NCBI GenBank assembly: GCA_015069325.1
Contig: SVIV01000002.1
Coordinates: forward strand, 181,694 to 245,693
DNA length: 64,000 nucleotides
DNA from: Clostridiales bacterium
GTDB lineage: Bacteria; Bacillota; Clostridia; Christensenellales; UBA1242
Reading direction: 5' to 3'
Position numbers and translations under genes: made by a program. The notes beneath the pieces are model-generated. The model saw only the letters and a list, made by a program, of their open reading frames with translations. It was not told where the DNA came from and searched no databases. Positions 5,514-30,649 of the stretch are shown piece after piece. How positions within the stretch are numbered: position 1 is the first letter of the stretch; every line of letters starts with the position of its first letter.

Positions 5514-5542
5514 GAAAACTTAGTTTGCATCATTTTATAAAC

Positions 5543-15331: not shown

Positions 15332-15489
15332 ATTTTCTCCTGATGATATTTTATATGTGCATATTTTAATCAGAGTTCAAAATAGTTTTTTCGCACAATC
15401 GCCATTCAAATTAACTTTCTTCTTTTAAACGGTTCAACAAACCTTGACAATTAAATATTAAATATGTTAAAATTTTTGCAGGAGAAAAT

Positions 15490-16791
15490 ATGAGAAAAAC
15501 ATCAACAACATTTAGAGAAGTAATTGATACGTATTATAATTTTCGAAGAAATCTTGCAGACTGGAACGACTTTTATAATGATGCATCAGACTTTCTTTCA
15601 ACAATAATTCTCGCATCAAACAATCAATTTCTAGAATCGCTGAGTTTAAATAACAAAATTTCTCTTTGCGAACGTTTAGTCTTTGTAATTGACGGATTTC
15701 CAAGTGCCTTTCCTTATGGAGAAAGCAATTCCTACGCATCTCAAGTAAACAAACTTGACGGACAACAGCATTTAGATGGCTACTATAATTTATGGAAAGA
15801 TTCAAATAAAATTTTTTTAGGCTCTTTCTTTCCATATGGTATAAACGGACCACGCAAAGATATTAAAACAAATATCTATCTTGACAGCACAAATGCAAAC
15901 CTGTTAGTAGATATTAAAACAATGACAAAAAATCAAGAAAAAGTAGCAAGATTTTGTTTTGCAGATCGCTATAGCATTTATGTAAAAAGACCAAGATCAG
16001 TTTTTGTTCAATCTATTACAAATGATATTGAAAACATAATTTTTACAGACCGTTTTGACCCTTTCCACACAGGCAGAGATTCAAAAGATGACCATACAAA
16101 TAATTTTCCACAACATTCAAGTCCACAAATGCTAGAGTTGTTCAACAAATACTTTCAATCAACTGCAAAAACACCACACTTGCACTTTTACTTTGAAAGT
16201 GTATGCGCCGGAGACGTTATCCCTACAAAAGATGGCCATCAACCTAAAGGCAATGATAAATCATTAGCAATAAACCTTGGTGGATTATCGCAATACATAA
16301 ATGACCTTTGCATAGCAATTAAATCCTATGACAACACACAGCCATTGCCAGCTATTTTAAAATACGATTTGGGAATGCCATACCTTTCAATACTATATGG
16401 CTCAACAGCTTTTAATGATAGTTATTTTATATCAAAAATAAAACGACTTCCTAATTTAGATGACGCCATTAAAAGAGATATTCTTGGCAAACTTAGTGCG
16501 ACAAAGTTTTTAAAATTAAACCTTCAATTCTTTGCAAAAGGCAACGACAATTTACCAATTTTCCCAAAAGAAGCAGCTCACATAAAAATTGCTTTAAAAC
16601 AACTAAAACAATTGTCAATCGCATACAAATTCATTGATGACAATGCCGAACGTTTAACATCAGGACAACAAAGATCGCTTGTTTCAGCAATTAATGATGG
16701 ATTAAACCAGCATCAGAAAATATATCTTGAATCCAACAATGAAAAAGATTTCAATGAAAATCGTGAAGACGATTTTGAACCAATACTATAA
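15490..16791 (+). CDS. hypothetical protein (433 aa orphan)
   Basis: Promoter TTGACA-N17-TAAAAT, RBS AGGAGA, terminator at 16811-16842. No motif recognised. Confidence 0.5.
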   Translation: MRKTSTTFREVIDTYYNFRRNLADWNDFYNDASDFLSTIILASNNQFLESLSLNNKISLCERLVFVIDGFPSAFPYGESNSYASQVNKLDGQQHLDGYYNLWKDSNKIFLGSFFPYGINGPRKDIKTNIYLDSTNANLLVDIKTMTKNQEKVARFCFADRYSIYVKRPRSVFVQSITNDIENIIFTDRFDPFHTGRDSKDDHTNNFPQHSSPQMLELFNKYFQSTAKTPHLHFYFESVCAGDVIPTKDGHQPKGNDKSLAINLGGLSQYINDLCIAIKSYDNTQPLPAILKYDLGMPYLSILYGSTAFNDSYFISKIKRLPNLDDAIKRDILGKLSATKFLKLNLQFFAKGNDNLPIFPKEAAHIKIALKQLKQLSIAYKFIDDNAERLTSGQQRSLVSAINDGLNQHQKIYLESNNEKDFNENREDDFEPIL

Positions 16792-16852
16792 AAAATCAAA
16801 TTTATAACATAAAAAAAGATATTCGTAGTTGAATATCTTTTTGTTTTAAATT

Positions 16853-17989
16853 TTACCATAACATTAAACTTAAATATGACAACGGCACTAAAATAAGTGC
16901 TCCTACAACATTGTATAGTGTATCAAGTCCTATATAATACCAAACGCCGTGCTTCTTATCCAATTTTTCATTTCTTGCAACTTTCATATATTCTTTCATT
17001 GCAATAACTCCCGATAACGATGAGAATATAATCCCCAAACTTGCAACATTTACCGATACCAACAAATGTGGCCAGTTCATTGTAAATTTTGAAAGCAAAA
17101 CCGCTGTCGGAACGTTGCTTATTGCTTGACAACTCACATATGCTGTCATATACGTATGTTCATTTATAAGAGATTCAAGAAGATTCACAATTGCAGGAAT
17201 TCTTGCTAAATTCCCTGAAAAGATAAAAAATGCAACAAAAATTAAAGGAATGGTATAATCTACTTTTAAAAAGGCCTTCCAATCACACGCAAGCATTGTA
17301 ATTACAATAAGAATTGTTGAAATCCACCAAGGCACTATCCCTAAAACGACCAATATTGTTAATAAAAACAAAACTCCATAAACTATTGCTCTTGGCACAT
17401 CAAATGCAATAGGTTCGTCATCTTTATACTGCAAAGGCTCTTTTTTCACAAACATACAAACTGCTATAATCAATACAAGCGCAATTGCAGTTGGTATAAG
17501 CATAATTTTAAAAAATTCCCATATTGAAACATCATAAAATGAAAAGATATAAAGATTTTGTGGATTGCCAATAGGAGTAATCATTCCACCAAGATTACTA
17601 GCAATATTTTGCATAATAAAAGTAAATGCAACATACCTTAAGTTGTTTGTATATTTTAAAACTATATAAGAAAGCGGTAGAAATGTCAAAAGAGACATAT
17701 CGTTCGCATTAACAAGCGCTGAAACATAGGTGATAAAAATCAAACACATAATAATGCTTCTTGTATTTTTGAATTTCTTTACAAGCCATTTTGCGACTTT
17801 TTGAAAGAAATTTATGTTTGAAAAACCTGCAATTACCAGCAACAGCAAAGTTATACACACAAGCGTATCAACATCAAAATATCCTAAATATTGTTTATCT
17901 GGCGGCACAAAAAAACAAGAAATTACAGCAATAATTACAGCAATGACAAAAATAAAGTTGTTTTTCAAAAAAGTCCAAACACGTTTCAT
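16853..17989 (-). CDS. ArsB/NhaD-superfamily anion permease (YbiR-like)
   Basis: 378 aa, about 10 TM helices, with GGMITPIGNPQNLYI characteristic of this permease superfamily. Confidence 0.7.
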   Translation of the reverse strand: MKRVWTFLKNNFIFVIAVIIAVISCFFVPPDKQYLGYFDVDTLVCITLLLLVIAGFSNINFFQKVAKWLVKKFKNTRSIIMCLIFITYVSALVNANDMSLLTFLPLSYIVLKYTNNLRYVAFTFIMQNIASNLGGMITPIGNPQNLYIFSFYDVSIWEFFKIMLIPTAIALVLIIAVCMFVKKEPLQYKDDEPIAFDVPRAIVYGVLFLLTILVVLGIVPWWISTILIVITMLACDWKAFLKVDYTIPLIFVAFFIFSGNLARIPAIVNLLESLINEHTYMTAYVSCQAISNVPTAVLLSKFTMNWPHLLVSVNVASLGIIFSSLSGVIAMKEYMKVARNEKLDKKHGVWYYIGLDTLYNVVGALILVPLSYLSLMLW

Positions 17990-18382
17990 TATCTCACCTT
18001 TTTTTATGTTAAGATAATTTTAACACTTTCTACATATAAAATGCAAACAAAATTAACCTACCTTTAAAATTTCACATAAAATCTATTAACTTTTCAATAT
18101 TTTTGAATACAAATAAAAAAATCTACTAAGATCTGATAAAAAAGTCGCATCAACATTTCTCTTTGCAAATATATGCCTATATGATTTTGGATTGATTTTG
18201 CCATTAATTAATATCATCTAATTCAAATCTACCACTCTTGTTAAAAAAAACAAATTTATTTCATATTTTTTATGTCTTCTTGTGTATTTTAAAGCATTAA
18301 TCTTATTATTTAATTGTTATTCAACTTTGATATTGCAAAAATGTTAATACTATGATATATTCATATTATCAAGGAGAAAGCA

Positions 18383-18844
18383 ATGTCAAAGTATATTAAA
18401 AAACTATCTAATGAAGAAATTGAAATATTTTTTAACAATAATGGTTATAAACTTGCTAAAGATATTACGGATGATAATGATTTACCAATCGATTCAATAG
18501 AAAGAGATGATGATTCTATTTTTGTGCGTACACAACAAATGAATGACAATGAAATTGATTTGCACCTAAACTCTATTTCTAGCAAAAAATATGCCGGAAT
18601 CTTGGCATTAACTACACTTTTCTCAATGCACGCCCCATACTCAAGAGATATCCATTTGTTTCATATTACAGATTATTTTTTGTCAAAATTTTGCATTTTC
18701 CCAGAAGATAGTGAAATAGGTAAAACCTTACTTACTTCATATTTCAAATTTATGATAGATAAATTCCCAACATACAAAAAAGATTTAGAAGAATATGTTG
18801 AATCTCTCCCTGATGATGAATCTGAAAGTGAAAATACAATATAA
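18383..18844 (+). CDS. hypothetical protein with acidic C-terminus
   Basis: 153-aa ORF. RBS AAGGAGA. Terminator aaaaaccgcaatcatttgcggttttta follows. No motif recognised. Confidence 0.5.
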   Translation: MSKYIKKLSNEEIEIFFNNNGYKLAKDITDDNDLPIDSIERDDDSIFVRTQQMNDNEIDLHLNSISSKKYAGILALTTLFSMHAPYSRDIHLFHITDYFLSKFCIFPEDSEIGKTLLTSYFKFMIDKFPTYKKDLEEYVESLPDDESESENTI

Positions 18845-18896
18845 AAACCGCAATCATTTGCGGTTTTTATTTCACGTTTCATTAAATTGGCATTGA

Positions 18897-19529
18897 TTAT
18901 TTTATAATTTTATTGTTTTTGACATAATCCGAAACAGCTAAAAAATTTTCATCATAATTATATCTTTCTTGCCCATATGTTAACCACATCTCAGCCCAAG
19001 ACATACCTGTTGTAAGCAATTTTTTTACATCTTCATTCTTTGCAGTTTCATTCTGCTCTTGCATATTCAAATCTACACACCCCTGCTCATCATAAAGCTT
19101 TGCTTGAATATCGCATTCCAATTTATCGCAAAAATATGCAAACTGAGATTCTAGCGTTTGCCGTTTCTCAAATTCAAAAATCAACTCTCGAATTTCATCT
19201 GCGTTACATAATTTTTTGAAAATATCAACAACAGCTTGATGTCCAAGTTTAACTTTTTCCTCTTTCGTCTTTTGAAAACAAGTTATGTCCCCAATTATCG
19301 TTTCTTCCATTTCATGAACAGCAATCATTGTGAGTGTTTTTTTTATGTCCAAATCATATTTAAATTCTGCCCACATTGCAATCGCAAGCATTTGGACGCC
19401 ATAAATATGCTCTGCTACGCTTTCAACCCTATGTCTGTTTACATTCCAATTCTGCCAACCAGTTCTTACAAGATCTTTTAATTTATTGCATAATACATAA
19501 AATTCAATAACCCTTTTTTCTCTTTGCAT
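18897..19529 (-). CDS. HD-domain hydrolase (YfbR-like 5'-deoxynucleotidase family)
   Basis: 210 aa with RTGW...ESVAEHIYGV...HEMEETIIGDIT, the H..HD..D metal ligand pattern. Confidence 0.8.
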   Translation of the reverse strand: MQREKRVIEFYVLCNKLKDLVRTGWQNWNVNRHRVESVAEHIYGVQMLAIAMWAEFKYDLDIKKTLTMIAVHEMEETIIGDITCFQKTKEEKVKLGHQAVVDIFKKLCNADEIRELIFEFEKRQTLESQFAYFCDKLECDIQAKLYDEQGCVDLNMQEQNETAKNEDVKKLLTTGMSWAEMWLTYGQERYNYDENFLAVSDYVKNNKIIK

Positions 19530-19660
19530 TTGCTTCTCCTAATAATCTCATATTATCATATGGGCATTTTTTTTGCAATGAAAATAAACAAAAAATCAAC
19601 TAAATAGTGGACAACAAACAAATTTTATGATATACTGAATATCGTTAATAGGAGAAGATA

Positions 19661-21118
19661 ATGAACGATAAAGCAATAAGAACAAGATTTGCACCAAGCC
19701 CAACTGGATATATGCATATCGGCAACTTAAGGACAGCCTTATATTGTTATTTGTTTGCCAAACATTGCAATGGCAAATTTATTTTAAGAATTGAAGATAC
19801 AGACCAGAAAAGATATGTTGAAGGTGCAACTGATGTCATTTACAGCACATTAAAAAAATCAAAACTCTTTCACGATGAAGGGCCAGATATTGGCGGAAAT
19901 TACGGACCTTATGTTCAAACTGAAAGAATGGAAATTTATAAAAAGTATGCATTAGAATTAGTCGAAAAGGGTTTTGCCTACTATTGTTTCTGTGATAAAA
20001 GCAGTCACGAAGAAAAAGAAGGAGAAGCTTCTATTGGTTATGACCGCCACTGTAGAAATTTATCAGCAGAAGAAATTGAAAACAACTTAAAATTAAATAA
20101 GCCTTATGTAATCAGACAAAAAGTTCCACTTGATGGCACAACTTCTTTTTATGACGAAGTTTATGGAGAAATCACCGTTGAAAACTCAACATTAGATGAT
20201 CAAGTTTTATTGAAAAGCGATGGACTTCCAACCTATAACTTTGCCAATGTAATAGATGATCACTTAATGAATATTACTCATATCTTAAGGGGAAAAGAAT
20301 ATATTTCTTCCACACCAAAATATCAATTATTATATAATGCCTTCGGTTGGGAACCTCCAAAAACGGCTCACCTTTCAACAATTATGGGAAAGAATGCCGA
20401 CGGATCGGTTTCTAAACTTTCTAAAAGACACGGCTCAGTAAGTTTTGAACAATTAATTAAAGATGGCTATTTGGTCGAAGCAGTTATAAATTACATTACT
20501 TTACTCGGCTGGAGCCCTAGACAAGAAAGAGAAATTTTCTCTTTGGAAGAATTGATTGAAATTTTCGATTTAGAAGGTTTAGTAAAGACAAATGCAATAT
20601 TTAGTTATGAAAAACTTGCTTGGATGAATGGAGAATACATTAAAAAACTTGCCCCATCTGAGTTTGAAAAAATTTCATATGACTATGCAACAAATCTTCC
20701 ATCATTTATAAAAGATAAATGGACATATGTTGCTAAGTTGTTGCAGAATAGAATCAATGTTTTCACAGAAGTTGAAGATAAACTTAAGTTTTTATATAAT
20801 TATGGAGAATTTGACTTAGAACTTTTAATAAACAAGAAAAACAAAACAACCATTGAATCAAGCATTCAAGTTTTAAAAGACTCTATTGATTATTTAGGTT
20901 CTATTAATGATTGGACAGATTCAAATATAAACGAAGCAATCACCCAATATTCAAATCAATTAAACTTAAAATTAGGCTTTGTAATGTGGCCTTTGAGAAT
21001 CGCAGTTACAGGCGAAGTTGTTACTCCTGGTGGCTGTGGCGAAATGATGTATATCTTAGGCAAAGAAGAAACATTATCTAGGCTTCAACAAACATTAAAT
21101 AGAATTGAAAACAAATAA
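19661..21118 (+). CDS. gltX: glutamate--tRNA ligase
   Basis: RTRFAPSPTGYMHIGNLRTALY (HIGH) and KLSKRHG (KMSKS), class I GluRS. Confidence 0.95.
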   Translation: MNDKAIRTRFAPSPTGYMHIGNLRTALYCYLFAKHCNGKFILRIEDTDQKRYVEGATDVIYSTLKKSKLFHDEGPDIGGNYGPYVQTERMEIYKKYALELVEKGFAYYCFCDKSSHEEKEGEASIGYDRHCRNLSAEEIENNLKLNKPYVIRQKVPLDGTTSFYDEVYGEITVENSTLDDQVLLKSDGLPTYNFANVIDDHLMNITHILRGKEYISSTPKYQLLYNAFGWEPPKTAHLSTIMGKNADGSVSKLSKRHGSVSFEQLIKDGYLVEAVINYITLLGWSPRQEREIFSLEELIEIFDLEGLVKTNAIFSYEKLAWMNGEYIKKLAPSEFEKISYDYATNLPSFIKDKWTYVAKLLQNRINVFTEVEDKLKFLYNYGEFDLELLINKKNKTTIESSIQVLKDSIDYLGSINDWTDSNINEAITQYSNQLNLKLGFVMWPLRIAVTGEVVTPGGCGEMMYILGKEETLSRLQQTLNRIENK

Positions 21119-21146
21119 AAACCTTGCAAACCTGCAAGGTTTTTAT
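21117..21146 (+). terminator. rho-independent terminator after gltX
   Basis: Stem accttgca/tgcaaggt followed by a T-run. Confidence 0.8.
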
Positions 21147-21281
21147 TTGTTGCTTTGATATTTCTTTACTACACAATCTACACTCATTAAAACATTTAGT
21201 CGTCCAATAAGCACATAAATTTATTAAGTAACCAATCAATTTTTGACAAATAAACAATTAAATTCAATACAAACAACCTAG

Positions 21282-21734
21282 TTAATTGTAATAAGCCATT
21301 GTATCTACATTATTAATAAATATCTCAAGAGCTTTTTTGTGATAAGGCAAAGGCAATAGACTTTCAATATCTTTCATATCAATTTCATCAACAATATGTC
21401 CTTCTTCAGTAGGTTCACAAAGTTTTTCTCCCAAATCAACCAAATAAAAATTTGCAAGTGACTCAAGTGGCCATTTCCCTGCAGCCAGCCAAAAACAATC
21501 AATAGTAATAACAGGAGTTATCTTTTGTATTGAATAACCAGACTCTTCGATAAACTCTCTTTTTAAGCACTCTTCATGAGTTTCTCCTCGTTCTAGTCCA
21601 CCACCAATCAAAGAATACTGTTCATTTTTTTTAACCACTAAAAATTTATTATCTTTCATGCAAATACCAAAACAAGTTTCACGAAAATCGTATTTTGCAT
21701 CAACAATCTTTTCACCAATTATTATCTTTTTCAT
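21282..21734 (-). CDS. NUDIX hydrolase
   Basis: 150 aa. Nudix box GGGLERGETHEECLKREFIEESG. Confidence 0.85.
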   Translation of the reverse strand: MKKIIIGEKIVDAKYDFRETCFGICMKDNKFLVVKKNEQYSLIGGGLERGETHEECLKREFIEESGYSIQKITPVITIDCFWLAAGKWPLESLANFYLVDLGEKLCEPTEEGHIVDEIDMKDIESLLPLPYHKKALEIFINNVDTMAYYN

Positions 21735-21846
21735 AAATCCCTCTTGATCATTATAGCAAAACCAGGCTATTTATACAATTAAAATATTGACTTTCATATT
21801 AAAAAGCTTTACAATATATTGCATAATCACAAAAAGGATAAAAAAG

Positions 21847-22389
21847 ATGACAATATTTGAAACTGAAAGATTAATAATCAGACAATGGAAACCAAACGAT
21901 TATAAAGATCTATTTGAATTTGCAAGTAACCCACAAGTTACAAAATTTTTGCAATATCCTACTTATACAGATATACAAACAGCAAAAAATAGAATTAAAT
22001 TTTTGATTGAAAAATATAAAACACAGGAAATTACACAAGAATACGCAATTGAGTTAAAACAAAACAAAAAAGTAATTGGCTCACTCAATATAGGTTCATT
22101 TAAACCAACTGCTGGTGGAATCATTCGTTTTGGCTATACATTAAATCCCCTTTTTCAAGGCAATGGGTATATGACAGAAACAATTAATTCGTTTTTAAAA
22201 TATATTAAAAATAACAACATTGCAAAAAGAATTGAAGCAACACATGATATATTAAATGAAAAAAGTGGAAATGTTTTAAAACGTGTAGGAATGACATTAG
22301 AAGGAATCCTTAGAAAATCCGGAGAAAACAACCTTCACAGCAGATACGATGTCGCATTGTATTCAATATTATACGAAGAAATCAAATAA
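21847..22389 (+). CDS. GNAT N-acetyltransferase (RimJ/RimL-like)
   Basis: MTIFETERLIIRQW... typical RimJ/L N-terminus, plus QGNGYMTE in the acetyl-CoA loop. The track start at 21787 is an extension. Confidence 0.85.
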   Translation: MTIFETERLIIRQWKPNDYKDLFEFASNPQVTKFLQYPTYTDIQTAKNRIKFLIEKYKTQEITQEYAIELKQNKKVIGSLNIGSFKPTAGGIIRFGYTLNPLFQGNGYMTETINSFLKYIKNNNIAKRIEATHDILNEKSGNVLKRVGMTLEGILRKSGENNLHSRYDVALYSILYEEIK

Positions 22390-22419
22390 AAAATATAACT
22401 TGAAAAAGTTATATTTTTT

Positions 22420-23136
22420 TTATAATAATTCTATTTCTAAAATATCTTTAGTCGTGCTAGACATTGTTTTTAAAAATTTATATGCTTTAAAAGCTTCAAT
22501 TATATGACTATCCCAAATATCCCAACCACCATGTTCAGTTGAATGTGACAGCTTAAAATATTTTCCTTCTCGCATTTCTTGAATAAACATATCTGCAGTT
22601 ATGTCATCACACTGCATAACAATCATTTTAATAAGCTTTTTATAAATTTCTCTCGCGTCAAAAGAATCATTTACATCTGGTATATTTTTCACATCACACT
22701 CATAAAAACAACTCAAAATTTCTCTACGTTTTTTCAATAACCTTATGCAAGAACAAGCATCTTTAAATTCAAAAGCACACATAGCTAAATCTTCTAATGC
22801 TTCTGGAATGCCATTGATATCATATTCTCCTATATGCAACTGTTTATCAACCTTTTCAGCAATTTCTTTAAATAGCTGTTGTTTCTCTTGAATATCCTTG
22901 CAATCTTCTAAAATTTGAATTTCTTTCAATAATTGTTTTGTTTTTAATACATCGCTTTTTGCATATTTTGCATAAATACCACCAAAATACGCTTTAGAAA
23001 ACATTTCCATAAATTCAGACGGATATAATTCATCAAGTTCTTGCATCATCACCAAAATTTTTTCTTTTGACATTTTTGATACGTCTTCAGCAAGTTGCTC
23101 GAAATATCGTTTTTTCAATATACTTTCTTGTTTCAT
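22420..23136 (-). CDS. hypothetical protein
   Basis: 238-aa ORF starting 14 nt after asnA, probably co-transcribed. No motif recognised. Confidence 0.5.
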   Translation of the reverse strand: MKQESILKKRYFEQLAEDVSKMSKEKILVMMQELDELYPSEFMEMFSKAYFGGIYAKYAKSDVLKTKQLLKEIQILEDCKDIQEKQQLFKEIAEKVDKQLHIGEYDINGIPEALEDLAMCAFEFKDACSCIRLLKKRREILSCFYECDVKNIPDVNDSFDAREIYKKLIKMIVMQCDDITADMFIQEMREGKYFKLSHSTEHGGWDIWDSHIIEAFKAYKFLKTMSSTTKDILEIELL

Positions 23137-23149
23137 GCTATGCTTCCCC

Positions 23150-24145
23150 CTATAACAACTCTATCTGTAATTCTTCACACTGTTTGAGTGTGTCTTTATC
23201 CCAATAACTTGCTTGAACTTCTCCAATATGTGCACGACCAAGAAGCAACATACATAATCTGCTTTGACCTATTCCACCACCAATTGTAAGCGGCAACTCT
23301 TCTTTGACAATTGATTGATGATAAGCATATTCTAATCGTTCTTGCTTACCTGATTTTTCAAGTTGCTTAATTAAAGTATCTTTATCAACCCTAATTCCCA
23401 TACTTGAAATTTCAATAGCCATATCCAACACTTCGTGATAGAAAAGTAAATCTCCGTCTAAACTCCAATCATCATAGTCTGGCGCTCTCGTATCGTGCGG
23501 TTTGCCATCGCTTAAATCATCACCAATGCCAATAATAAATACAGTTTTATATTGTTTTGTAATCAAATATTCTCTTTCTTTATCTGTTTTATCTGGATAC
23601 AAATCCAAAAGTTCTTGACTTGTTATAAAGAAAACATCTTTGCATATTTCCACACCATCAAACCCTTTTGTCTTTAAAAATTCACTAGTGTCCGCAATTG
23701 CTTTAACAATCTTTTTGACAGTTTTCTTTAAAAAATCTACAGTTCTATCTTTTCTAACTATAACTTTTTCCCAATCCCATTGATCAACATAAATTGAATG
23801 AGTTTCATCCATTTTATCATCTCTTCGAATTGCAGTCATATCAGTGTATAAACCCTTATGAATAGGAAAATCATATTTTTTTAGTGCCATACGCTTCCAT
23901 TTAGCAAGAGATTGAACTATTTCGAGCTGTTTACCATCTTTCAAAATATCAAACGATACTTTACGCTCAACTCCACTTAAATCATCTTGCAAACCACTTT
24001 CTTTCGTTACAAGTAATGGTGCTGAAACTCTTGTTAAATCTAATGCTCCAGCCAATTTTCTTTCAAACTTATCTTTGATAAATTTTATATATTTTTGTTT
24101 ATCTAATATTCTTAAATGTGTATATTTTTCTTTAATAAATTTCAT
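23150..24145 (-). CDS. asnA: aspartate--ammonia ligase (asparagine synthetase A)
   Basis: 331 aa with LDLTRVSAPLLV..SGLQDDLSG.ERKVSF and a class-II aaRS-like core ending GGGIGQSRLCMLLL. Confidence 0.9.
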   Translation of the reverse strand: MKFIKEKYTHLRILDKQKYIKFIKDKFERKLAGALDLTRVSAPLLVTKESGLQDDLSGVERKVSFDILKDGKQLEIVQSLAKWKRMALKKYDFPIHKGLYTDMTAIRRDDKMDETHSIYVDQWDWEKVIVRKDRTVDFLKKTVKKIVKAIADTSEFLKTKGFDGVEICKDVFFITSQELLDLYPDKTDKEREYLITKQYKTVFIIGIGDDLSDGKPHDTRAPDYDDWSLDGDLLFYHEVLDMAIEISSMGIRVDKDTLIKQLEKSGKQERLEYAYHQSIVKEELPLTIGGGIGQSRLCMLLLGRAHIGEVQASYWDKDTLKQCEELQIELL

Positions 24146-24213: not shown

Positions 24214-24288
24214 TCACCTAAAAACTCTCCTTAAATATTTATTATTGTTATTATCATCTTCGCCCGCTACGGCGTTTGTCTTTTTCAT
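24214..24288 (-). promoter_or_regulatory. second Asn-rich mini-ORF in the asnA leader (MKKTNAVAGEDDNNNNKYLRRVFR)
   Basis: RBS AAAGGAG 5 nt before the ATG at 24288. Four consecutive Asn codons. Stop at 24216-24214. Confidence 0.4.
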
Positions 24289-24330
24289 AACATCTCCTTT
24301 TTTCAATTTTTTTTATAGTTAACAACACTA

Positions 24331-24429
24331 AGTAAAAATAGCACACCCTTTAGAGAGTGTGCTGTGATATGTGTTATTTTAATAACATCAATATAAACAA
24401 AACACTCTCTTGGATTTCAAGAGAGTGTT
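24331..24429 (-). promoter_or_regulatory. asnA leader attenuator: hairpin 24401-24429, terminator 24331-24362, alternative pairing between them
   Basis: Minus-sense AACACTCTCTTG-aaatc-CAAGAGAGTGTT followed by UUUUGUUUAU, then GCACAC-ucucuaaag-GGUGUGC followed by UAUUUUU. AGAGAGUGU of the first hairpin can instead pair with ACACUCUCU, which overlaps the terminator 5' arm. Confidence 0.55.
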
Positions 24430-24450
24430 GATTATCTATTTTAAATATGC

Positions 24451-24534
24451 TTAGATTTTTTCAACAACAAAAATGAAACCCATATTAAATGCGTTTAAAT
24501 TATTATTGTTGTTATTATTTATAACTCTAAACAT
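24451..24534 (-). promoter_or_regulatory. Asn-run leader peptide (MFRVINNNNNNNLNAFNMGFIFVVEKI) upstream of asnA
   Basis: Promoter TTGACA-N17-TGtgaTAAAAT at about 24565-24590. RBS AAAGGAGAAGG. Seven consecutive AAT/AAC codons plus two more Asn. Confidence 0.55.
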
Positions 24535-24666
24535 ACCTTCTCCTTTCATTTAGATGTCTCTATTTTATCACATAATTCACCATATGTCAATACATTTTGA
24601 AAAATTTTTAAATTCATAACAACCCAGTCAATCAATTACACATTTTAGAGGAGTTATAGTATCTTA

Positions 24667-25095
24667 TTATGGTTTATATTTTAAAATAAAGTGTGAATGA
24701 TTTTCTCCATCAACAATAAAACCATGCCTTTCGTAAAATCTTTTAGCTGGATTTGTTTTAAATGTGTCTAAATAAATTGGTTTATTAAGTTGATTTGCTT
24801 GTTTTATAAAATGTTGCATTATCTCAGAACCCAAACCATTGTTTCTAAAGTTTGGAAATAAACACAAAACATCAACAGTAATTTTTGTCTCTTCTTCTTT
24901 AAAATAAACAAACCCCGCGATCTCGTTTCCCACCATTATTTTAAACAAACTTGATTTTAATCTCTCCAAATGTTGTTCCATTATACTTTGATCAAACTGT
25001 CCAAAAAATTCTATAACATATTTTTCAAAAGCATCTTTTTGCATTTTTAAATATAAATCTCGATCTTTTTGTTCATATAATTTCAATTCAAACAT
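24667..25095 (-). CDS. GNAT N-acetyltransferase (array unit 6)
   Basis: 142 aa from the ATG at 25095 (MFELKLYEQ...). RNNGLGSEIM acetyl-CoA loop. The track start at 25179 translates the promoter region. Confidence 0.8.
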   Translation of the reverse strand: MFELKLYEQKDRDLYLKMQKDAFEKYVIEFFGQFDQSIMEQHLERLKSSLFKIMVGNEIAGFVYFKEEETKITVDVLCLFPNFRNNGLGSEIMQHFIKQANQLNKPIYLDTFKTNPAKRFYERHGFIVDGENHSHFILKYKP

Positions 25096-25117: not shown

Positions 25118-25170
25118 ATTATACCACACAAATAAAAAAATGTATACACTTTGAATGCAAAATGTATACA
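25118..25170 (-). promoter_or_regulatory. unit-6 promoter with twin TGTATACA palindromes
   Basis: TGTATACA at 25141-48 and 25163-70, 22 bp apart. Extended -10 TGtGgTATAAT with TATAAT at 25118-23. Confidence 0.65.
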
Positions 25171-25184
25171 TTTTATCAAAAAAA

Positions 25185-25435
25185 TTAAATTTTACTTTTC
25201 CTACTCTGTCTATCCACATTCAAAACCACCCCTATTGCACTCATAAAAACAAGGAGCGCAGTTGAACCTGCAGAGTTTTGGGGCCCCCGCAAATCGTGAG
25301 AATTGCGGGGAAAAGGAAAAACGGAGCGTCAAATTTTGTGCAAGCAAAGCGAGCACAACTCACAAAGCGAGTGTTTTGACGCAGGTAGTGGCAAACCCGT
25401 TGGTGGTATGCTACCTGTTACCACGAGTTATTGCA
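25185..25435 (-). repeat. decoy copy A of the ftsW 3' tail (with structured insert)
   Basis: Encodes ..PPTGLPLP | insert | AGSTALLVFMSAIGVVLNVDRQSRKSKI* and aligns to ftsW 29534-29680. An in-frame TGA lies inside the insert. Confidence 0.85.
25272..25382 (+). ncRNA. structured insert, copy A (111 nt)
   Basis: Hairpin CCCCGCAA/TTGCGGGG, outer stem GCGTCAAA/TTTGACGC, inner hairpin TTGTGC/GCACAA, purine linker GGGGAAAAGGAAAAAC. The strand call is tentative and rests on G-T pairs. Confidence 0.45.
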
Positions 25436-25446
25436 CTATGGATTTC

Positions 25447-25965
25447 TTATTTAATTTTTTCATCTTCAAGTGGTTCACATTCAATTAATTTACTTTCATA
25501 AGCCAAATAATTAAACAATTGCATAAAAACCTGTTCAACCTTAGGCACCCTGCTACCACTGTTGCAAAAACAAATTGCGCAACCCATATGTGGATAACTC
25601 CAACTTTCTTTATCTTCATTTTTTATGAATTTTATTGTAAAAGCATCTTCAGTTTTTATAATATTTAAAACATTCGCTTCATCTTCTGGCCAATCTTCAC
25701 TAATATAAGATATTATGTTCCCTTGTAATACTGGACGATATTTGTCATCATTCTTCCCTACAGCATTAAATAATTGATTAAAAACACCATACGTTATTTT
25801 ATCGCTTTTATCTATTTCAAAAATTTTATTTTCTTTATGATTCTCTGGCAACCAATATAAATCCAAATTGCCACCAACTGTCATTACAAATGACTTACCA
25901 TTTTTATCGGTAATTTTTACATCATAATATCCTTCTTTATTGTTTCTTAGTTGTTTTGTAATCAC
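25447..25965 (-). CDS. hypothetical protein (array unit 5)
   Basis: 172-aa ORF with a GTG start after RBS AGGAGAA. Own promoter TTTACA-N17-TGgTAATAT. The stop abuts decoy tail A. Confidence 0.55.
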   Translation of the reverse strand: MITKQLRNNKEGYYDVKITDKNGKSFVMTVGGNLDLYWLPENHKENKIFEIDKSDKITYGVFNQLFNAVGKNDDKYRPVLQGNIISYISEDWPEDEANVLNIIKTEDAFTIKFIKNEDKESWSYPHMGCAICFCNSGSRVPKVEQVFMQLFNYLAYESKLIECEPLEDEKIK

Positions 25966-25981: not shown

Positions 25982-26057
25982 ATATTACCACATTTTCAAA
26001 CAATTGTAAATAGAATGAAATAAAAAATGTATACACTTTGATTACAATATGTATACA
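25982..26057 (-). promoter_or_regulatory. unit-5 promoter region with twin TGTATACA palindromes
   Basis: TGTATACA at 26028-35 and 26050-57, 22 bp apart. Divergent -10 TAATAT at 25982-87. Confidence 0.6.
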
Positions 26058-26070
26058 TTTCATTAAAAAA

Positions 26071-26327
26071 TTAAATTTTACTCTCTCTACTCTGTCTATC
26101 CACATTCAGCACCACCCCTATCGCACTCATAAAAACAAGGAGCGCAGTTGAACCTGCAGAGTTTTGGGGCCCACGCAAATCGTGAGATTTGTGGGGAAAA
26201 GGAAAAACAGAGCGTCAAATTTTGTGCAAGCAGAGCGAGCACAAATCACAAAGCGAGTGTTTTGACGCAGGTAGTTGCAAACCTGTTGGTGGGATTGAGC
26301 CTCTTAACATCAGTTATTGTATTATAA
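26071..26327 (-). repeat. decoy copy B of the ftsW 3' tail (with structured insert)
   Basis: Same architecture as copy A. Insert at 26158-26268. Confidence 0.85.
26158..26268 (+). ncRNA. structured insert, copy B (111 nt)
   Basis: Same helices as copy A. The P1 3' arm reads ATTTGTGGGG, which makes a G-T pair on the plus strand. Confidence 0.45.
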
Positions 26328-26846
26328 AGTTACCCAATACCTTTCTAAATTTATTCCCTCTCTTTCAAGTGTTCTAGTATCCTCATATTGTCCACCATTT
26401 GCTAAAATACATTTTCTTGATGCAATGTTGGTGTCTTTACAAGACAATAGCACTTTATCAATTCCCAACTCTTTGCATTTCTTTAACCCAAGAGCAAGTA
26501 ATTTTTTACCATAACCTTTCCTTCTTTCATCAACAGCAACACTATCTCCACAATGCCCGCCATAATTCAATAAGAAATCACTTAATTTATGTCTAATTTG
26601 AAACATTCCTATTAACTTGTTATCAGACTTCCTTATACAAATGTATTGCGTTGAAGGAACATATCCTGCAGGTAAATTTTTTCCCTCTCTCCAATCATTA
26701 TTTTTTTGTAGCCATGTTTCAAAATCATCTTTTCTTAAATCTCCACAGCCATCCATACTAGAACCCGATTCAATCATATCTTTTTTATATCTTTCTACTT
26801 GCTCTTTATATTCAGCTGTTGGTATTATTAACTCTAATTCATCCAT
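26322..26846 (-). CDS. GNAT acetyltransferase (COG3981-like; array unit 4)
   Basis: 174 aa with VAVDERRKGYGKKLLALGLKKCKELG, the acetyl-CoA binding motif. The stop codon lies inside the conserved repeat boundary ttattgtattataa. Confidence 0.8.
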   Translation of the reverse strand: MDELELIIPTAEYKEQVERYKKDMIESGSSMDGCGDLRKDDFETWLQKNNDWREGKNLPAGYVPSTQYICIRKSDNKLIGMFQIRHKLSDFLLNYGGHCGDSVAVDERRKGYGKKLLALGLKKCKELGIDKVLLSCKDTNIASRKCILANGGQYEDTRTLEREGINLERYWVTL

Positions 26847-26875: not shown

Positions 26876-26928
26876 ATTATACCACACAAATAAAAAAATG
26901 TATACACTTTTCTTACAATTTGTATACA
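26876..26928 (-). promoter_or_regulatory. unit-4 promoter with twin TGTATACA palindromes
   Basis: TGTATACA at 26899-906 and 26921-28, 22 bp apart. TGtGgTATAAT with TATAAT at 26876-81. Confidence 0.65.
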
Positions 26929-26942
26929 TTTCTATAAAAATT

Positions 26943-27130
26943 TTATTTGAGATTCACTCCACTCATTTCTCTCGGTCGGAATGACAGTGTTTTACTTTGT
27001 TTATCTACGTTGAGAACAACTCCGATGGCAGACATAAAGACAAGCAAACTTGTTGACCCTGCAGAGATGAACAGAAGTAGTAATCCTGTTGGTGGGATTG
27101 AGCCCCTTAACATCAGTTATTGTATTATAA
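26943..27130 (-). repeat. decoy copy C of the ftsW 3' tail (no insert; intact alternative C-terminus)
   Basis: Reads in frame as IPPTGLLLLFISAGSTSLLVFMSAIGVVLNVDKQSKTLSFRPREMSGVNLK*. It lacks the ~110-nt insert. Confidence 0.85.
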
Positions 27131-27140
27131 AATTTCACAC

Positions 27141-27170
27141 AAAAAAAGAGCAAAATTTATTGCTCTTTTT
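27141..27170 (-). terminator. terminator of the PnuC unit
   Basis: Stem agagcaa/ttgctct with A and T runs. Nearly identical to the hairpin at 29064-29091. Overlaps the pnuC stop. Confidence 0.7.
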
Positions 27171-27864
27171 GCTTATATTGTTTTTTCTCTTCTAACTTCC
27201 AATGAATCAGACCATAGGTATCATTGGTTAAAAAAACAAAAAACGTAACAACGGTTGGCAAATAACCAATTCCGCTATTCACAACAACAATCGACCATAA
27301 AACGATTAAAATAATATCATTAAGAATAAAAGCTAAAGCATAATAGCTACATCTTCTAAGCATTAAATATGAAGCAACTAAAGATGTAATTAAAGACAAT
27401 GTGCTTATAATCAACTCACTAGTGTTTAATGCTTTTAATAAAAAATAAAATCCAATTGTTGCAAAAACTGTTGCAACAGACAAATATGCATATTCCTTTC
27501 CTTTTATCTTATTAACTTCAACAACTTGTGTATTTTCCTTATTTTTATTTCTCAACCAAGTAATTATTGAAAAGAAATAAATAGGAATCATTAATACAAT
27601 ATAAATTATTGCTTCACCATAATAACGTTGAACTATTGATATAATGGCATATAAAACACAATATATAATATTAAGAAATGGCGAAACAATTAAACCCTTA
27701 GCCAAAGTAAAAACAGCAATAATGCCAACTAATGAAGTAATTAACGAAAAAGCATTTTTATCTAAACTAAAAACAAAACACAAAACAATTGCCAACAAAC
27801 TAACAAATAAAAATAAAATTTCAAACAAATTCCAATTCTTAAAAAATTTTTTAAGCATAAGCAT
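27157..27864 (-). CDS. pnuC: nicotinamide riboside transporter PnuC family (array unit 3)
   Basis: 235 aa, 7-8 TM helices. N-terminal WNLFEILFL...LAKG...YGEAI..., a PnuC-like pattern. Confidence 0.75.
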   Translation of the reverse strand: MLMLKKFFKNWNLFEILFLFVSLLAIVLCFVFSLDKNAFSLITSLVGIIAVFTLAKGLIVSPFLNIIYCVLYAIISIVQRYYGEAIIYIVLMIPIYFFSIITWLRNKNKENTQVVEVNKIKGKEYAYLSVATVFATIGFYFLLKALNTSELIISTLSLITSLVASYLMLRRCSYYALAFILNDIILIVLWSIVVVNSGIGYLPTVVTFFVFLTNDTYGLIHWKLEEKKQYKQKEQ

Positions 27865-27878
27865 TCTCCAATGAGTTA

Positions 27879-27931
27879 ATTATACAATAAAAATAACAAA
27901 ATGTATACAAATTGCATGCAAAATGTATACA
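27879..27931 (-). promoter_or_regulatory. unit-3 promoter with twin TGTATACA palindromes
   Basis: TGTATACA at 27902-09 and 27924-31, 22 bp apart, flanking a TTGCATGCAA centre. TATAAT at 27879-84. Confidence 0.65.
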
Positions 27932-27947: not shown

Positions 27948-28198
27948 TTAAATACTACTTTTTCTACTCTGCCTATCTACATTAAGCACAACCCCTATTG
28001 CACTCATGAATACTAGCAAACTTGTTGAGCCTGCATTTTGGCCCCCGCAAATCGTGAGATTTGTGGGGAAAAGGAAAAACAGAGCGTCAAATTTTGTGCA
28101 AGCAGAGCGAGCACAAATCACAAAGCGAGAGTTTTGACGCAGGTAGTGGCAATCCTGTTGGTGGGATTGACCCATTAACATCAGTTATTGTATTATAA
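27948..28198 (-). repeat. decoy copy D of the ftsW 3' tail (with structured insert)
   Basis: GSIPPTGLPLP and AGSTSLLVFMSAIGVVLNVDRQSRKSSI* are separated by the insert at 28035-28140. The upstream part is in a different frame. Confidence 0.85.
28035..28140 (+). ncRNA. structured insert, copy D (106 nt)
   Basis: P1 CCCCGCAAAT/ATTTGTGGGG (one G-T pair), P2 GCGTCAAA/TTTGACGC, P3 TTGTGC/GCACAA. Confidence 0.45.
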
Positions 28199-28219
28199 AA
28201 AAGCACAAAAAAAGAGTCT

Positions 28220-28699
28220 TTACAACTCTTTTTCCTCACTTTCTTGAATAACGTCTTGCTTGTGCAAGACCTCCAAACATTCTTGTTTAAACTTAGCAAT
28301 TTCCTCTTTATCTTCACCAAAATAAAGTTCACCTGCTATATCTAATAATTCATCTATAGTCATTAAATTATCATCATCTTTATAATAATTTATACCACTT
28401 CGTCTATTGGTATAATCTTGAGCAAGCAAACATGCCTCATCATATCTTGTCACACCATGATTTTTGCTTAAATCAGTATTCCTCAATGCCTTAATAAAAT
28501 ATTTTGGTTCTTTATATGGATCAAAAACATATTCACCAGTTTTACTTCTAGATAAATGTATTCGTGCACTCTCACTCAATCTTGTCATAAAAGTTTGAAA
28601 TGCATTTTTATTGTCGATAACAAATTCAATATGATAAAAATGATGACCTACACACTCATTACCACAAAAAACTCTAATTTCCTTAAATCGTTTTTTCAT
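28220..28699 (-). CDS. hypothetical protein (array unit 2)
   Basis: 159 aa from the ATG at 28699 (MKKRFKEIRVF...), preceded by RBS TAGGAGAAAG. The track start at 28780 translates the promoter. No motif recognised. Confidence 0.55.
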   Translation of the reverse strand: MKKRFKEIRVFCGNECVGHHFYHIEFVIDNKNAFQTFMTRLSESARIHLSRSKTGEYVFDPYKEPKYFIKALRNTDLSKNHGVTRYDEACLLAQDYTNRRSGINYYKDDDNLMTIDELLDIAGELYFGEDKEEIAKFKQECLEVLHKQDVIQESEEKEL

Positions 28700-28720
28700 A
28701 CATCTTTCTCCTATGCTTGC

Positions 28721-28773
28721 ATTATACCACACAAACAAAAAAATGTATACACATTGATTATAATTTGTATACA
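28721..28773 (-). promoter_or_regulatory. unit-2 promoter with twin TGTATACA palindromes
   Basis: TGTATACA at 28744-51 and 28766-73, 22 bp apart. TGtGgTATAAT with TATAAT at 28721-26. Confidence 0.65.
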
Positions 28774-28791
28774 TTTGCATTAAAATTTTTT

Positions 28792-29050
28792 TTAGATTTT
28801 ACTCTTCCTACTCTGTCTATCTATATTTAGAACAATCCCTATCGCACTCATAAAAACTAGCAAAGAAGTTGAGCCGGCATTCTGGGGCACCCCGCAAGTT
28901 GCAGGAGCGAAACTTGTGGGGATAAGGAAAAACCAAGCGTCAATTTTTGTGCGACCAACAGCGAGCACAAACTTAAAAGCGAGTGTTTTGACGCAGGTAG
29001 TGGCAAGCATGTTGGTGGAATTGAACCTCTTAACATCAGTTATTGTATTA
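28792..29050 (-). repeat. decoy copy E of the ftsW 3' tail (with structured insert)
   Basis: Tail AGSTSLLVFMSAIGIVLNIDRQSRKSKI*. Insert at 28879-28994. This is the most diverged copy. Confidence 0.85.
28879..28994 (+). ncRNA. structured insert, copy E (116 nt)
   Basis: P1 CCCCGCAAGTT/AACTTGTGGGG carries a compensatory A-T to G-C change relative to copies B and D. The loops differ but the stems are kept. Confidence 0.45.
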
Positions 29051-29063
29051 CAAATTTTTGCAT

Positions 29064-29091
29064 TAAAAAAAGAGCAAATTTATTGCTCTTT
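29064..29091 (-). terminator. terminator of the LytTR unit
   Basis: Stem agagcaa/ttgctct with A and T runs. Confidence 0.7.
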
Positions 29092-29093
29092 AC

Positions 29094-29444
29094 CTAAAAT
29101 TCTCTTTCATGTTCTCGATTTAATTTGGGGATGACATTTCTTTCAAAATCCACCACAGATAATTTTTTTAGTTGCATACCATTTCTAAATTTAACAGTAA
29201 CAAAAGACCCATTACTTAAATATGAATTCATTTCATTTGGATTTATATAAACAACGCAATTGTGTTTATAGCAAAATACTTTAGGCAACTTGTTTAATAA
29301 GTTTTCCATATCGCCCCATTGCAATGTAACGGTTTCTCCATCGATAAAATGTGTATCACATTTAAAACCATCTTCAACTATATACAAAATATCTCTTGAA
29401 TTAAATTCAATTCTTTTCCATGATCCAAATGGCGTAGCTTGCAT
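29094..29444 (-). CDS. stand-alone LytTR-type DNA-binding domain protein (array unit 1)
   Basis: 116 aa. RIEFNSRDILYIVEDGFKCDTHFIDGETVTLQWGDMENLLNKLPKVFCYKHNCVVYINPNEM fits the LytTR pattern (..I.yie......i.t.......sl..le..Lp..F.r.hrs.iVN...i). No receiver domain. Confidence 0.65.
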   Translation of the reverse strand: MQATPFGSWKRIEFNSRDILYIVEDGFKCDTHFIDGETVTLQWGDMENLLNKLPKVFCYKHNCVVYINPNEMNSYLSNGSFVTVKFRNGMQLKKLSVVDFERNVIPKLNREHEREF

Positions 29445-29464: not shown

Positions 29465-29518
29465 ATTATACCACAAAAATAAAAAAAATGTATACACTTT
29501 GATTACGATTTGTATACA
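29465..29518 (-). promoter_or_regulatory. unit-1 promoter with twin TGTATACA palindromes, directly after the ftsW stop
   Basis: TGTATACA at 29489-96 and 29511-18, 22 bp apart. TGtGgTATAAT with TATAAT at 29465-70. Confidence 0.65.
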
Positions 29519-29533
29519 TTTATATTGAAAATA

Positions 29534-30649
29534 TTAAATTCTACCTTTTCGAGATTGTCTATCAACATTCAACACCACCCCTATCGCCGACATAAAAACA
29601 AGCAAACTTGTACTGCCGGCACTTATGAAAGGCAACGGCAGTCCTGTTGGTGGGATCGAACCTGTTACAACAGCGACATTAAGAAGGGTTTGCACTGCAA
29701 TAACAAATGCGACTCCGCAAGAAAGCATACTGCCAAAGCGGTCTTTTGCATTAAGACCTATTTTTATAATTTGCAAACATAAAAATAAGACAAACGAAAG
29801 ATATAAAACCACTCCCACAAATCCTATTTCTTCTCCCATAATTGAAAGAATAAAATCTGATTCAGCAAATGGAAGAAATAAATATTTTTGACGAGAGTTG
29901 AAAAGCCCAACACCAAACCATCCACCATCACCAAGAGAATAAAGCGATTGAATAAGCTGAAAACCTTCACCCTGCGGAGACGCCCAAGGATCAATAAACG
30001 CTAACAATCTTTTCATTCGATATGGCTCTGCAATAATTAGTAGTGGCACTGCAAGACCTGCAGGAATTGAAAACATAAGCGTATGCTTTTTGCTCATTCC
30101 ACCTATAATAAGCATACACAGCAAAACAAAACATATGCACATAGTTACACTCATACTAGGCTCCAACATAATCAGCAAAGCCATAACACCGCCTACCACA
30201 AGCACAGGAAATAACCCTTTTAAAGTTTTTACCTTATGATTATTATCTGCCAAATATGATGCTGTAAAAATCACCAATGCAAATTTTGCCACTTCTGATG
30301 GTTGAATTGAAAAGCCTAAAAGAGAAATCCATCTTTTTGCACCATATATTTCAACGCCCAAACCTGGAATAAAAACAAGGGATAAAAGCACACACGTTCC
30401 AACTACAATCCACCACTTAAGCTTTGCTAAGATATGATAATCCACCATTGAAAAGAAAATTAATCCACATATGCCCAAAATAAAACCAAAAAGTTGTTTA
30501 AAAAGAAAAAATTCGCTATTTCCATAATGATGCTGAGCAGAATAAAAACTTGCACTGTAAACCATAACACAGCCAAACAGTGCTAAGATTGCCACTATTG
30601 AAAAAATTAAAAGATATTCACCCTTGAAATTCAATTTTTTCAGTTTCAC
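29534..30649 (-). CDS. ftsW: SEDS-family peptidoglycan polymerase FtsW/SpoVE
   Basis: 371 aa, about 10 TM helices. C-terminal GSIPPTGLPLPFISAGSTSLLVFMSAIGVVLNVDRQ matches the SEDS signature. Located after murD in the dcw cluster. Confidence 0.9.
   Translation of the reverse strand: MKLKKLNFKGEYLLIFSIVAILALFGCVMVYSASFYSAQHHYGNSEFFLFKQLFGFILGICGLIFFSMVDYHILAKLKWWIVVGTCVLLSLVFIPGLGVEIYGAKRWISLLGFSIQPSEVAKFALVIFTASYLADNNHKVKTLKGLFPVLVVGGVMALLIMLEPSMSVTMCICFVLLCMLIIGGMSKKHTLMFSIPAGLAVPLLIIAEPYRMKRLLAFIDPWASPQGEGFQLIQSLYSLGDGGWFGVGLFNSRQKYLFLPFAESDFILSIMGEEIGFVGVVLYLSFVLFLCLQIIKIGLNAKDRFGSMLSCGVAFVIAVQTLLNVAVVTGSIPPTGLPLPFISAGSTSLLVFMSAIGVVLNVDRQSRKGRI

Follow-up and report, generated by a model that had tools for sequence, protein, structure and literature searches.

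This locus raises the question of why one short palindrome, TGTATACA, occurs twice, at a fixed distance, in front of every gene of a tandem array lying behind ftsW in a Clostridiales bacterium (contig SVIV01000002.1, positions 181,694 to 245,693; the whole stretch of 64,000 nucleotides is called the window, and positions are counted from its first letter). Six units lie downstream of ftsW in a region whose genes are all encoded on the minus strand. The window contains 13 copies of TGTATACA, as against 0.91 expected from shuffled sequences (shuffle maximum, 4), and 12 of the 13 form six pairs, each upstream of a −10 box, with a start-to-start distance of exactly 22 bp (25141/25163, 26028/26050, 26899/26921, 27902/27924, 28744/28766 and 29489/29511). 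These six pairs and their fixed spacing had been described at the same coordinates in a first interpretation, hereafter the sequence-only reading, which took them for an operator pair bound by a dedicated protein, as a hypothesis the 116-aa protein of the unit next to ftsW, or, alternatively, for recombinase sites. Our analysis leads to a different answer: judged from the sequence, the two copies are probably the arms of an intrinsic terminator hairpin that is fused to the promoter of the following gene, or cassette.

Read on the ftsW-sense (minus) strand, the arrangement is AAA-TGTATACA-14 nt-TGTATACA-TTT followed by 7-8 T, the layout of an intrinsic (Rho-independent) terminator in which the two copies would be the 5' and 3' arms of a single stem-loop. 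The fixed 22-bp spacing would then reflect hairpin geometry, with a 14-nt 'loop' that may often form an inner stem of 3-6 bp, and the arms would resemble twin palindromes only because the core of the stem, GTATAC, is self-complementary. Alignment of the six units showed invariant arms around a variable 14-nt spacer, and all six junctions fold arm to arm, with energies from −9 to −18 kcal/mol. At junction 6 (29489..29518, minus strand, like all the junctions), which directly follows the ftsW stop codon, the arms at 29511-29518 and 29489-29496, lengthened by AAA and TTT, are paired in the minus-strand RNA fold and enclose a 14-nt loop (−9 kcal/mol). The folds of junction 5 (28744..28773) and junction 3 (26899..26928) reach −10.3 and −12 kcal/mol, respectively. 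At junction 4 (27902..27931) the loop TTTTGCATGCAATT adds an inner stem (−15.1 kcal/mol, z-score −3.9); junction 2 (26028..26057) folds at −15 kcal/mol (z −4.4), and junction 1 (25141..25170), which was terminator-like in a scan, has a 17-bp stem with a 4-nt loop (−18 kcal/mol).

A scan of one genome per species for TGTATACA-N14-TGTATACATTTT gave 51 loci. About 30 of them are gut metagenome-assembled genomes (MAGs) labelled 'Clostridia bacterium' or 'Candidatus Onthoplasma' (Christensenellales), in which the pair closely follows the stop codon of an ftsW that is full-length and 53-85% identical to that of the window, or comes after remnants of ftsW; the remaining loci belong to unrelated bacteria. 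These remnants also account for the conserved 'structured' part of every unit in the window, which is a copy of the ftsW 3' end (its last ~45 codons) that the sequence-only reading had overlooked. In the window as in the ~30 species, the pair sits 15-25 nt past the stop codon of ftsW or of a remnant and on the same strand. Four MAGs had more than one locus, and every exact match in them was within an array or beside a remnant.

For the pair counts, arms were located by motif match, not by folding, in 61 junctions, and 18 distinct arm combinations were used. On this modest base of 18 distinct arm pairs, 95.6% of the cells are paired. Double-sided changes (A-U to G-C and U-A to C-G) are found at three pairs, in 7 cells, and G·U wobbles are recurrent. 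Neither the covariation score nor the paired fraction was reached by any of 500 shuffles, and sliding the register lowered the paired fraction to 14-62%. Among the 29 cells that depart from the consensus, 21 are still paired, compared with about 1 in 6 expected for random single substitutions; palindromy, by contrast, is lost in 33 of the 34 variant arms.

The two strands are not equivalent. In 55 ftsW-oriented junctions, 8.7 of the 10 nucleotides past the 3' arm are T versus 5.3 A out of 10 ahead of the 5' arm (p ~1e-10), and the sense-strand RNA is the stabler one in 38 of the 55 cases (p ~8e-5). Per-position conservation is 90-100% in the arms and ~50-90% in the loop, while the synonymous sites of the adjoining ftsW copies are saturated (synonymous divergence, dS, ~1.3). 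The ratio of nonsynonymous to synonymous divergence (dN/dS) of the remnants, 0.08, equals that of the working copies, but it is biased by the filter for intact, FtsW-like copies and is therefore used solely to show synonymous saturation. Conserved arms, a variable loop and saturated synonymous sites are the pattern expected of a stem. The same figures bear on the idea that the hairpin is a passive relic, an ancestral ftsW terminator copied along with the tail and now without function in the inner units. Such a relic would explain why the hairpin always accompanies a copy of the ftsW 3' end, and the inner units do have terminators of their own cassettes upstream, such as AAAGAGCAATAAATTTGCTCTTT and its T-run at 29069..29091 (minus strand), which lies upstream of the next remnant. 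The arms have nevertheless kept 90-100% conservation next to saturated synonymous sites and a drifting loop, and their changes preserve pairing, which argues for continuing selection; we find a mere relic quite unlikely.

Further junctions within the related loci show that the stem does not depend on the 22-bp spacing. The gap between the arm motifs is 16 nt in 45 of the 61 junctions and 4-7 nt in ~17, the short form being the same stem closed by a 4-7-nt loop (for example AAAATGTATGCG-ATTT-CGTATACATTTTTTT), with folds of −13 to −14 kcal/mol and z-scores of about −4 to −5. One and the same cassette (92% amino-acid identity) follows a twin form in locus L054 and a short form in L011. Altogether four kinds of junction were found: the twin form, the short form, unrelated canonical terminators (L030 and L006), and nothing at all, with a plain promoter directly following. 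The module shows the sequence features of an intrinsic terminator: a stem-loop, an immediate U-tract of 7-8 nt on the sense strand only, a co-oriented position just past a stop codon on the coding strand, and pairing kept by wobble and compensation. It differs from usual intrinsic terminators in that its long stem is very rich in A and T and contains an internal loop, and in that the 3' arm and the U-tract are reused as the −35 sequence and spacer of the next promoter; conservation of the hairpin sequence across ~30 species would come from its being carried inside a mobile junction module.

The link to the promoter is visible in five of the six units, where, on the minus strand, the promoter-proximal copy provides TATACA, followed by 17-18 nt and TATAAT. 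The proximal copy does therefore overlap the −35 position, as previously proposed. The extended −10 promoter that the sequence-only reading attributed to five of the six units holds as far as TATAAT is concerned, but the TG extension is present in only four of these five; unit 4 lacks it, and unit 2 has a different promoter (TTTACA-N17-TAATAT, 25982-26010). In unit 6 the T-run and cassette promoter extend over 29465..29494 (minus strand; promoter scan and alignment), with TATACA within the 3' arm, 18 nt, and TGTGGTATAAT, and the equivalent promoters lie at 28721-28749, 27879-27907, 26876-26904 and 25118-25146, also on the minus strand. Across species, 44 of the 61 junctions have 17-18 nt between the end of the arm and the −10 box. 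In the mechanism that we propose, the T-run would also form the spacer of the promoter that follows, with the 3' arm providing a weak −35 sequence (TATACA) for the extended −10 TGTGGTATAAT. The overlap of terminator and promoter suggests that transcripts arriving from ftsW or the upstream unit are terminated within the module and that transcription starts anew there for the cassette gene. Promoter-like matches over the whole region are at chance level (34 found, 31 expected), and a weak divergent plus-strand promoter suggested earlier did not survive, being a 9/12 match to the consensus in one unit of such a region.

Overlap with the −35 position, together with the near invariance of the arms in the twin form, is also what might be expected if a host repressor bound both palindromes on the same face of the helix and blocked the −35 sequence of every cassette promoter, giving array-wide control. 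By its motif, the protein would more plausibly be a GntR/FCD-type dimer or tetramer than a LytTR regulator. The sequence ATGTATACAT is the proven operator of the Agrobacterium GntR/FCD protein Atu1419, which binds two palindromes as a tetramer (PMC7797058). The palindrome of the array is of the same type, (N)yGT(N)xAC(N)y, here ATGTATACAT, and matches the Atu1419 operator at 9-10 of 10 positions; the likeness thus extends to an identical 10-mer and to two sites per promoter region that a tetramer could bind. In Bacillaceae, moreover, 3-4 TTGTATAC(A) sites with 22-bp phasing are found in the divergent region before a GntR/FCD gene (loci L009, L017, L024, L032 and L044, in the last at 5439-5530), and these are probably a genuine operator array of the ATGTATACAT type. 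Against a repressor of the ftsW arrays, 33 of the 34 variant arms lose palindromy and yet still pair with the other arm, the G·U wobbles are strand-specific and would not be favoured by a reader of duplex DNA, the short-loop forms have no second site, and some cassettes have plain, palindrome-free promoters. No GntR-family gene is present within the 64-kb window, and the T-run and the stop-codon context point to RNA. We consider that control by such a repressor is unlikely, although it is the strongest of the rival readings.

The Agrobacterium operator and the Bacillaceae arrays nonetheless weigh against a terminator fused to a promoter as the whole explanation, since they make a protein site at the DNA level possible, and such a site could coexist with the hairpin. 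Other points weigh in the same direction. Two of the six window hairpins are not clearly stabler than shuffled sequence (z −0.7 and −1.7), and the stems are AT-rich, with two G-C pairs per 8-bp core. The arms of inner units are as well conserved as the ftsW-proximal ones; as inner units have a cassette terminator upstream, a second terminator there looks redundant. Finally, perfect copies are over-represented, since most related loci were fetched by a search for the exact twin motif with TTTT, and the variant arms come from further junctions within those same loci.

We then considered the 116-aa protein (cassette 6 gene, 29094..29444, minus strand), to which the palindromes had been assigned. 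Its AlphaFold model, built on a 19-sequence alignment, has a predicted local distance difference test (pLDDT) score of 93, and its eight best matches in PDB are all LytTR domains (AgrA and B. cereus 3d6w among them), with target-normalised template-modelling (TM) scores of 0.54-0.72 and a probability of 1.0. The deeper alignment came from the search of all representatives; with five close sequences the model was unusable (pLDDT 35). Sequence searches of the protein against Pfam and PDB gave nothing significant, with no Pfam match of any kind even at E<=10, and 4 of the 19 family members match Pfam LytTR (PF04397) weakly (best E 0.038, below the gathering score). According to the model, the protein is therefore of LytTR-type fold without a receiver domain; its earlier description as a stand-alone LytTR protein holds for the predicted fold, while the Pfam family is not reached.

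Could this protein, by binding the two 9-mers, gate all unit promoters? In addition to its predicted fold, the geometry of 9-bp repeats with a 13-bp spacer, which the sequence-only reading had pointed out and which we found in all six window units, fits AgrA/ComE-type spacing. Known LytTR systems (AgrA, ComE and the stand-alone HdrR/BrsR type) have comparable sites, two 9-bp elements that lie 12-13 bp apart ahead of a promoter, and here too the gene for a stand-alone LytTR-fold protein is close by; in one other species (L059) a 57%-identical homologue, the sole cassette there, again follows twin palindromes. However, LytTR sites are direct repeats, whereas the arm variants ATGCATAC...GTATGCAT and GTGCATGC/GTATGCGC keep inverted complementarity and not direct identity. 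The short-loop forms cannot hold two sites 22 bp apart, which argues against an operator pair of any kind. The motif and the protein do not co-occur either: the module is found in ~30 species, and the 25 other array loci fetched have other first cassettes and no homologue of the protein, whose family amounts to 14 clusters at E<=1e-10 among 1.84 billion representatives. In L061 a homologue of 71% identity follows a remnant and a plain TTGACT-N17-TATAAT promoter without palindromes. With arms that covary as a hairpin in arrays that lack the protein, the palindromes are very hard to maintain as its operator, and we hold this role to be highly improbable. The protein is one of many cassette cargoes.

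We examined how the terminator-promoter module is placed within the units. The working ftsW gene (SEDS family; open reading frame (ORF) 29534..30649, minus strand; Pfam FTSW_RODA_SPOVE, E 2.9e-94) ends with the ~45 codons, GSIPPTGLPLPFISAGSTSLLVFMSAIGVVLNVDRQSRKGRI and the stop, that are copied in all units. On the minus strand each unit consists of a conserved arm, TTTATAATACAATAACTGATGTTAAGAGG, then CTCAATCCCACCAACAGG and the remaining ftsW tail up to the stop codon, a spacer of ~15 nt, the palindrome pair, the T-run, the promoter, one gene and usually a terminator of its own. The junction module of ~290 bp that precedes every array gene thus comprises the cassette-side arm, the ftsW 3'-end copy, the hairpin, the T-run and the promoter. 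Searched with the FtsW tail (tblastn), the window gave five remnants on the minus strand. Remnant 5 (approximate limits 28789..29054) begins with the cassette-side arm TTTGTAATACAATAACTGATGTTAAGAGG, followed by the core TCAATTCCACCAACATG. Like remnants 4 (27948..28200), 2 (26071..26328) and 1 (25185..25442), whose limits are also approximate, it is split by an insert of ~110 nt. Remnant 3 (26943..27131) is uninterrupted and holds a 56-aa ORF (MLRGSIPPTGLLLLFISAGSTSLLVFMSAIGVVLNVDKQSK...), with an extra piece of ~45 nt in its tail.

In more than 50 copies the remnants start at nearly the same place, FtsW residues 327-330. The cassette-side arm, TTTATAATACAATAACT(G/C)(A/G)TGTTAA(G/C)(A/G)GG, is kept in more than 50 remnants from ~25 species and has a sharp 5' edge; its window copies are at 29022-29054, 28168-28200, 27099-27131, 26296-26328 and 25410-25442 (minus strand). 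This arm retains TATAAT and an in-frame ATG or GTG, so that uninterrupted remnants (for example 26943-27113) are potential mini-ORFs of ~46-56 aa encoding the FtsW tail. The extra piece of ~35-45 nt, CTGTCATTCCGACCGAGAGAAATGAGTGGAGTGAATCTCAAA, lies in the window at ~26945-26990 (minus strand), and a comparable one, GTCATTCTGAGCGAAGTCGAAGAATCTC, stands between remnant and hairpin in L008, L029 and L035; it looks like a small palindromic repeat element.

The genes carried by the six units, all on the minus strand, encode, besides the 116-aa protein of cassette 6, a 160-aa protein without family match (cassette 5, 28220..28702), a PnuC-type transporter of nicotinamide riboside or nicotinamide mononucleotide (cassette 4, 27157..27864), a GNAT acetyltransferase (cassette 3, 26322..26846), a 172-aa protein without family match (cassette 2, 25447..25965) and a second GNAT acetyltransferase (cassette 1, 24667..25095), the last unit before asnA. 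Among 55 array ORFs we counted at least 12 GNAT acetyltransferases, four HD hydrolases, two APH-type kinases, two methyltransferases, barstar, PnuC and others, together with small unknown proteins. Arrays reach at least six remnants (L011, L030, L036 and L054) and lie between ftsW and murA in many species; in the window and in a sister species asnA comes next.

It could be argued that the hairpin is itself a site for the excision and insertion of cassettes, either folded as a single strand, as attC is, or in duplex form, as the alternative of the sequence-only reading had it. Integron attC sites are imperfect inverted repeats bounding single-gene cassettes, a hairpin likewise stands at the boundary of every window unit, and in L011 and L054 the similarity of the shared cassette begins at the 3' side of the hairpin. 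However, hairpin-free cassettes are shared, at 97% nucleotide identity, between distant genomes whose ftsW genes are only 65-71% identical; many junctions have an unrelated terminator instead, or none, and conservation of the module breaks off sharply at a different place, TTTATAATACAATAAC, which is upstream of the ftsW-like core. Neither was a recombinase or integrase found among the genes called with Pfam across the 64-kb window, nor a recombinase within the top 25 of the 52 Pfam families listed for the 55 array ORFs. A recombination site is thus a very unlikely role for the hairpin, for which we retain that of a terminator fused to a promoter.

The array as a whole does recall chromosomal integrons (IntI/attI/attC), which likewise line up single-gene cassettes, all oriented the same way, at one defined place in the chromosome and flank each of them with a conserved repeat that includes an inverted repeat; in both, the cargo is rich in GNAT acetyltransferases and small unknown proteins, and cassettes are common to distant hosts. 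In contrast to integrons, there is no IntI tyrosine recombinase or other integrase beside the array, the hosts are Gram-positive Clostridia, and each cassette has its own promoter and terminator, without attC ends; in place of attC, the repeat reproduces the 3' end of ftsW, an essential gene. The locus also resembles the tandem accretion seen at the 3' ends of housekeeping and tRNA genes (for example by cis-mobilisable elements derived from integrative and conjugative elements), where insertion restores the target with an element-borne 3' end and displaces the old one, leaving a ladder of direct tail repeats. Such a ladder of ftsW 3' ends with a constant 5' limit is what we found, and we regard the locus at large as a novel form of tandem cassette accretion. 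It differs from known cases in its units of 0.6-1.3 kb with one cargo gene and no recombination genes, and in a long repeat (~135 nt coding and ~100 nt regulatory) of highly uniform architecture. The constant remnant start and the conservation of the cassette-side arm suggest that insertions of the Campbell type have occurred repeatedly at the ftsW tail; each inserted cassette would bring a replacement tail, and each repeated tail would mark a past insertion event. Such insertions could come about by site-specific recombination or by homologous recombination between the repeats.

Searches of collections of mobile elements found nothing above chance: the cassette-side arm had no match in viral contigs, the junction module had none in plasmid or phage collections, and the bare twin motif occurred in three viral contigs, at chance level. 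A literature search for ftsW cassette arrays, an ftsW attB or integron-like arrays in Clostridia gave nothing relevant, and the ftsW cassette array is apparently undescribed. A broader proposal, which we make tentatively and with less than even confidence, is that the palindromes mark the junction module of a new gene-capture platform in Gram-positive gut Clostridia (Christensenellales and relatives). This analogue of the chromosomal integron would add self-expressed cassettes at the ftsW 3' end, each with a replacement tail, a terminator and a promoter, and exchange them from species to species by a recombination system encoded away from the array. The ~110-nt element, which lies where duplicated gene tails meet, in ftsW arrays as well as beside the copied 3' end of a tRNA-Arg in another organism, may take part. 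To our knowledge complete integrons have not been reported in Firmicutes, so that an ftsW-anchored cassette platform, if true, would open a new path for gene flow between gut microbes, and its order of terminator, promoter and gene would be a compact insulation design found in nature. Were homologous recombination between the ftsW-tail repeats of ~250 bp the only source of the arrays, they would represent a notable hot spot and not a new mechanism. Taken alone, the palindromes are an ordinary regulatory part, a probable terminator fused to a promoter, and their value is that of a signpost: the motif search brought to light, in ~30 species of gut Clostridia not in culture, arrays behind ftsW in which the number of self-expressed cassettes reaches at least six.

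The ~110-nt insert that splits four of the five window remnants is a structured element of the form GGGG-N-CCCC[P1 hairpin]GGGG-AAAGGAAAAAC-[P2 variable hairpin]-GCGAG-GTTTTGACGC. Its window copies (25271..25385, 26157-26271, 28040-28143 and ~28890-29000) are on the plus strand, antisense to ftsW and inside the remnants. The hairpins vary in sequence between copies while self-complementarity is kept by eye; formal pair counts support this weakly, and RNAalifold run on a MAFFT alignment recovered part of the by-eye structure. Rfam has no family for the junctions or for the element (searches with the whole window, the array at a relaxed E-value, 14 metagenome loci and a clean copy). In L022 (4178-4281), L027 (6408-6593), L028 (5008-5108) and L049 (7120-7227) the element is in the ftsW sense, directly behind ...VDR of the working gene, and another ftsW tail, not identical to the first, comes after it. 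Other copies are in L064, L069 and L063/L066/L070, and a metagenome scan also found the element outside arrays. In L067 (9846-9950) it is flanked by a complete tRNA-Arg and by 26 nt that exactly repeat the 3' end of that tRNA, at another metagenome locus it follows tRNA-Leu, and in high-GC gut contigs it is free-standing and intergenic, with cobW-like genes and tpiA on either side. Among its possible identities are a mobile small-RNA gene, a miniature transposable element and a part of the insertion process.

In a strain-level comparison that looked for a recent insertion, contigs with identical FtsW had the same array, and the sister species (85% FtsW identity) differs solely by a scaffold gap of Ns. 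An abundant species with 75% identity (L077-L079, FtsW of 391 aa) lacks both remnants and palindromes, and its ftsW and murA are separated by an ordinary terminator and two small, fixed genes, which would make it a useful non-carrier control. A 550-aa FtsW match proved to have an unrelated architecture. In one MAG (JAZOOJ01), which also carries the long array L011, an ftsW 3' remnant with twin palindromes is located away from ftsW, directly past thrS (L008, 4571-4789). In many relatives (L006/L020/L028/L048/L059) murA directly follows the array. In the window (13210-24145), as in the sister species, asnA, a gene for a 238-aa protein, a GNAT gene, a NUDIX gene, gltX and others separate the array from murA-ftsQ-ftsA-ftsZ, so that the division cluster is split in both. 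Between the last cassette and asnA (24240-24560, minus strand), the window also contains two tiny Asn-rich ORFs with flanking terminator-like hairpins.

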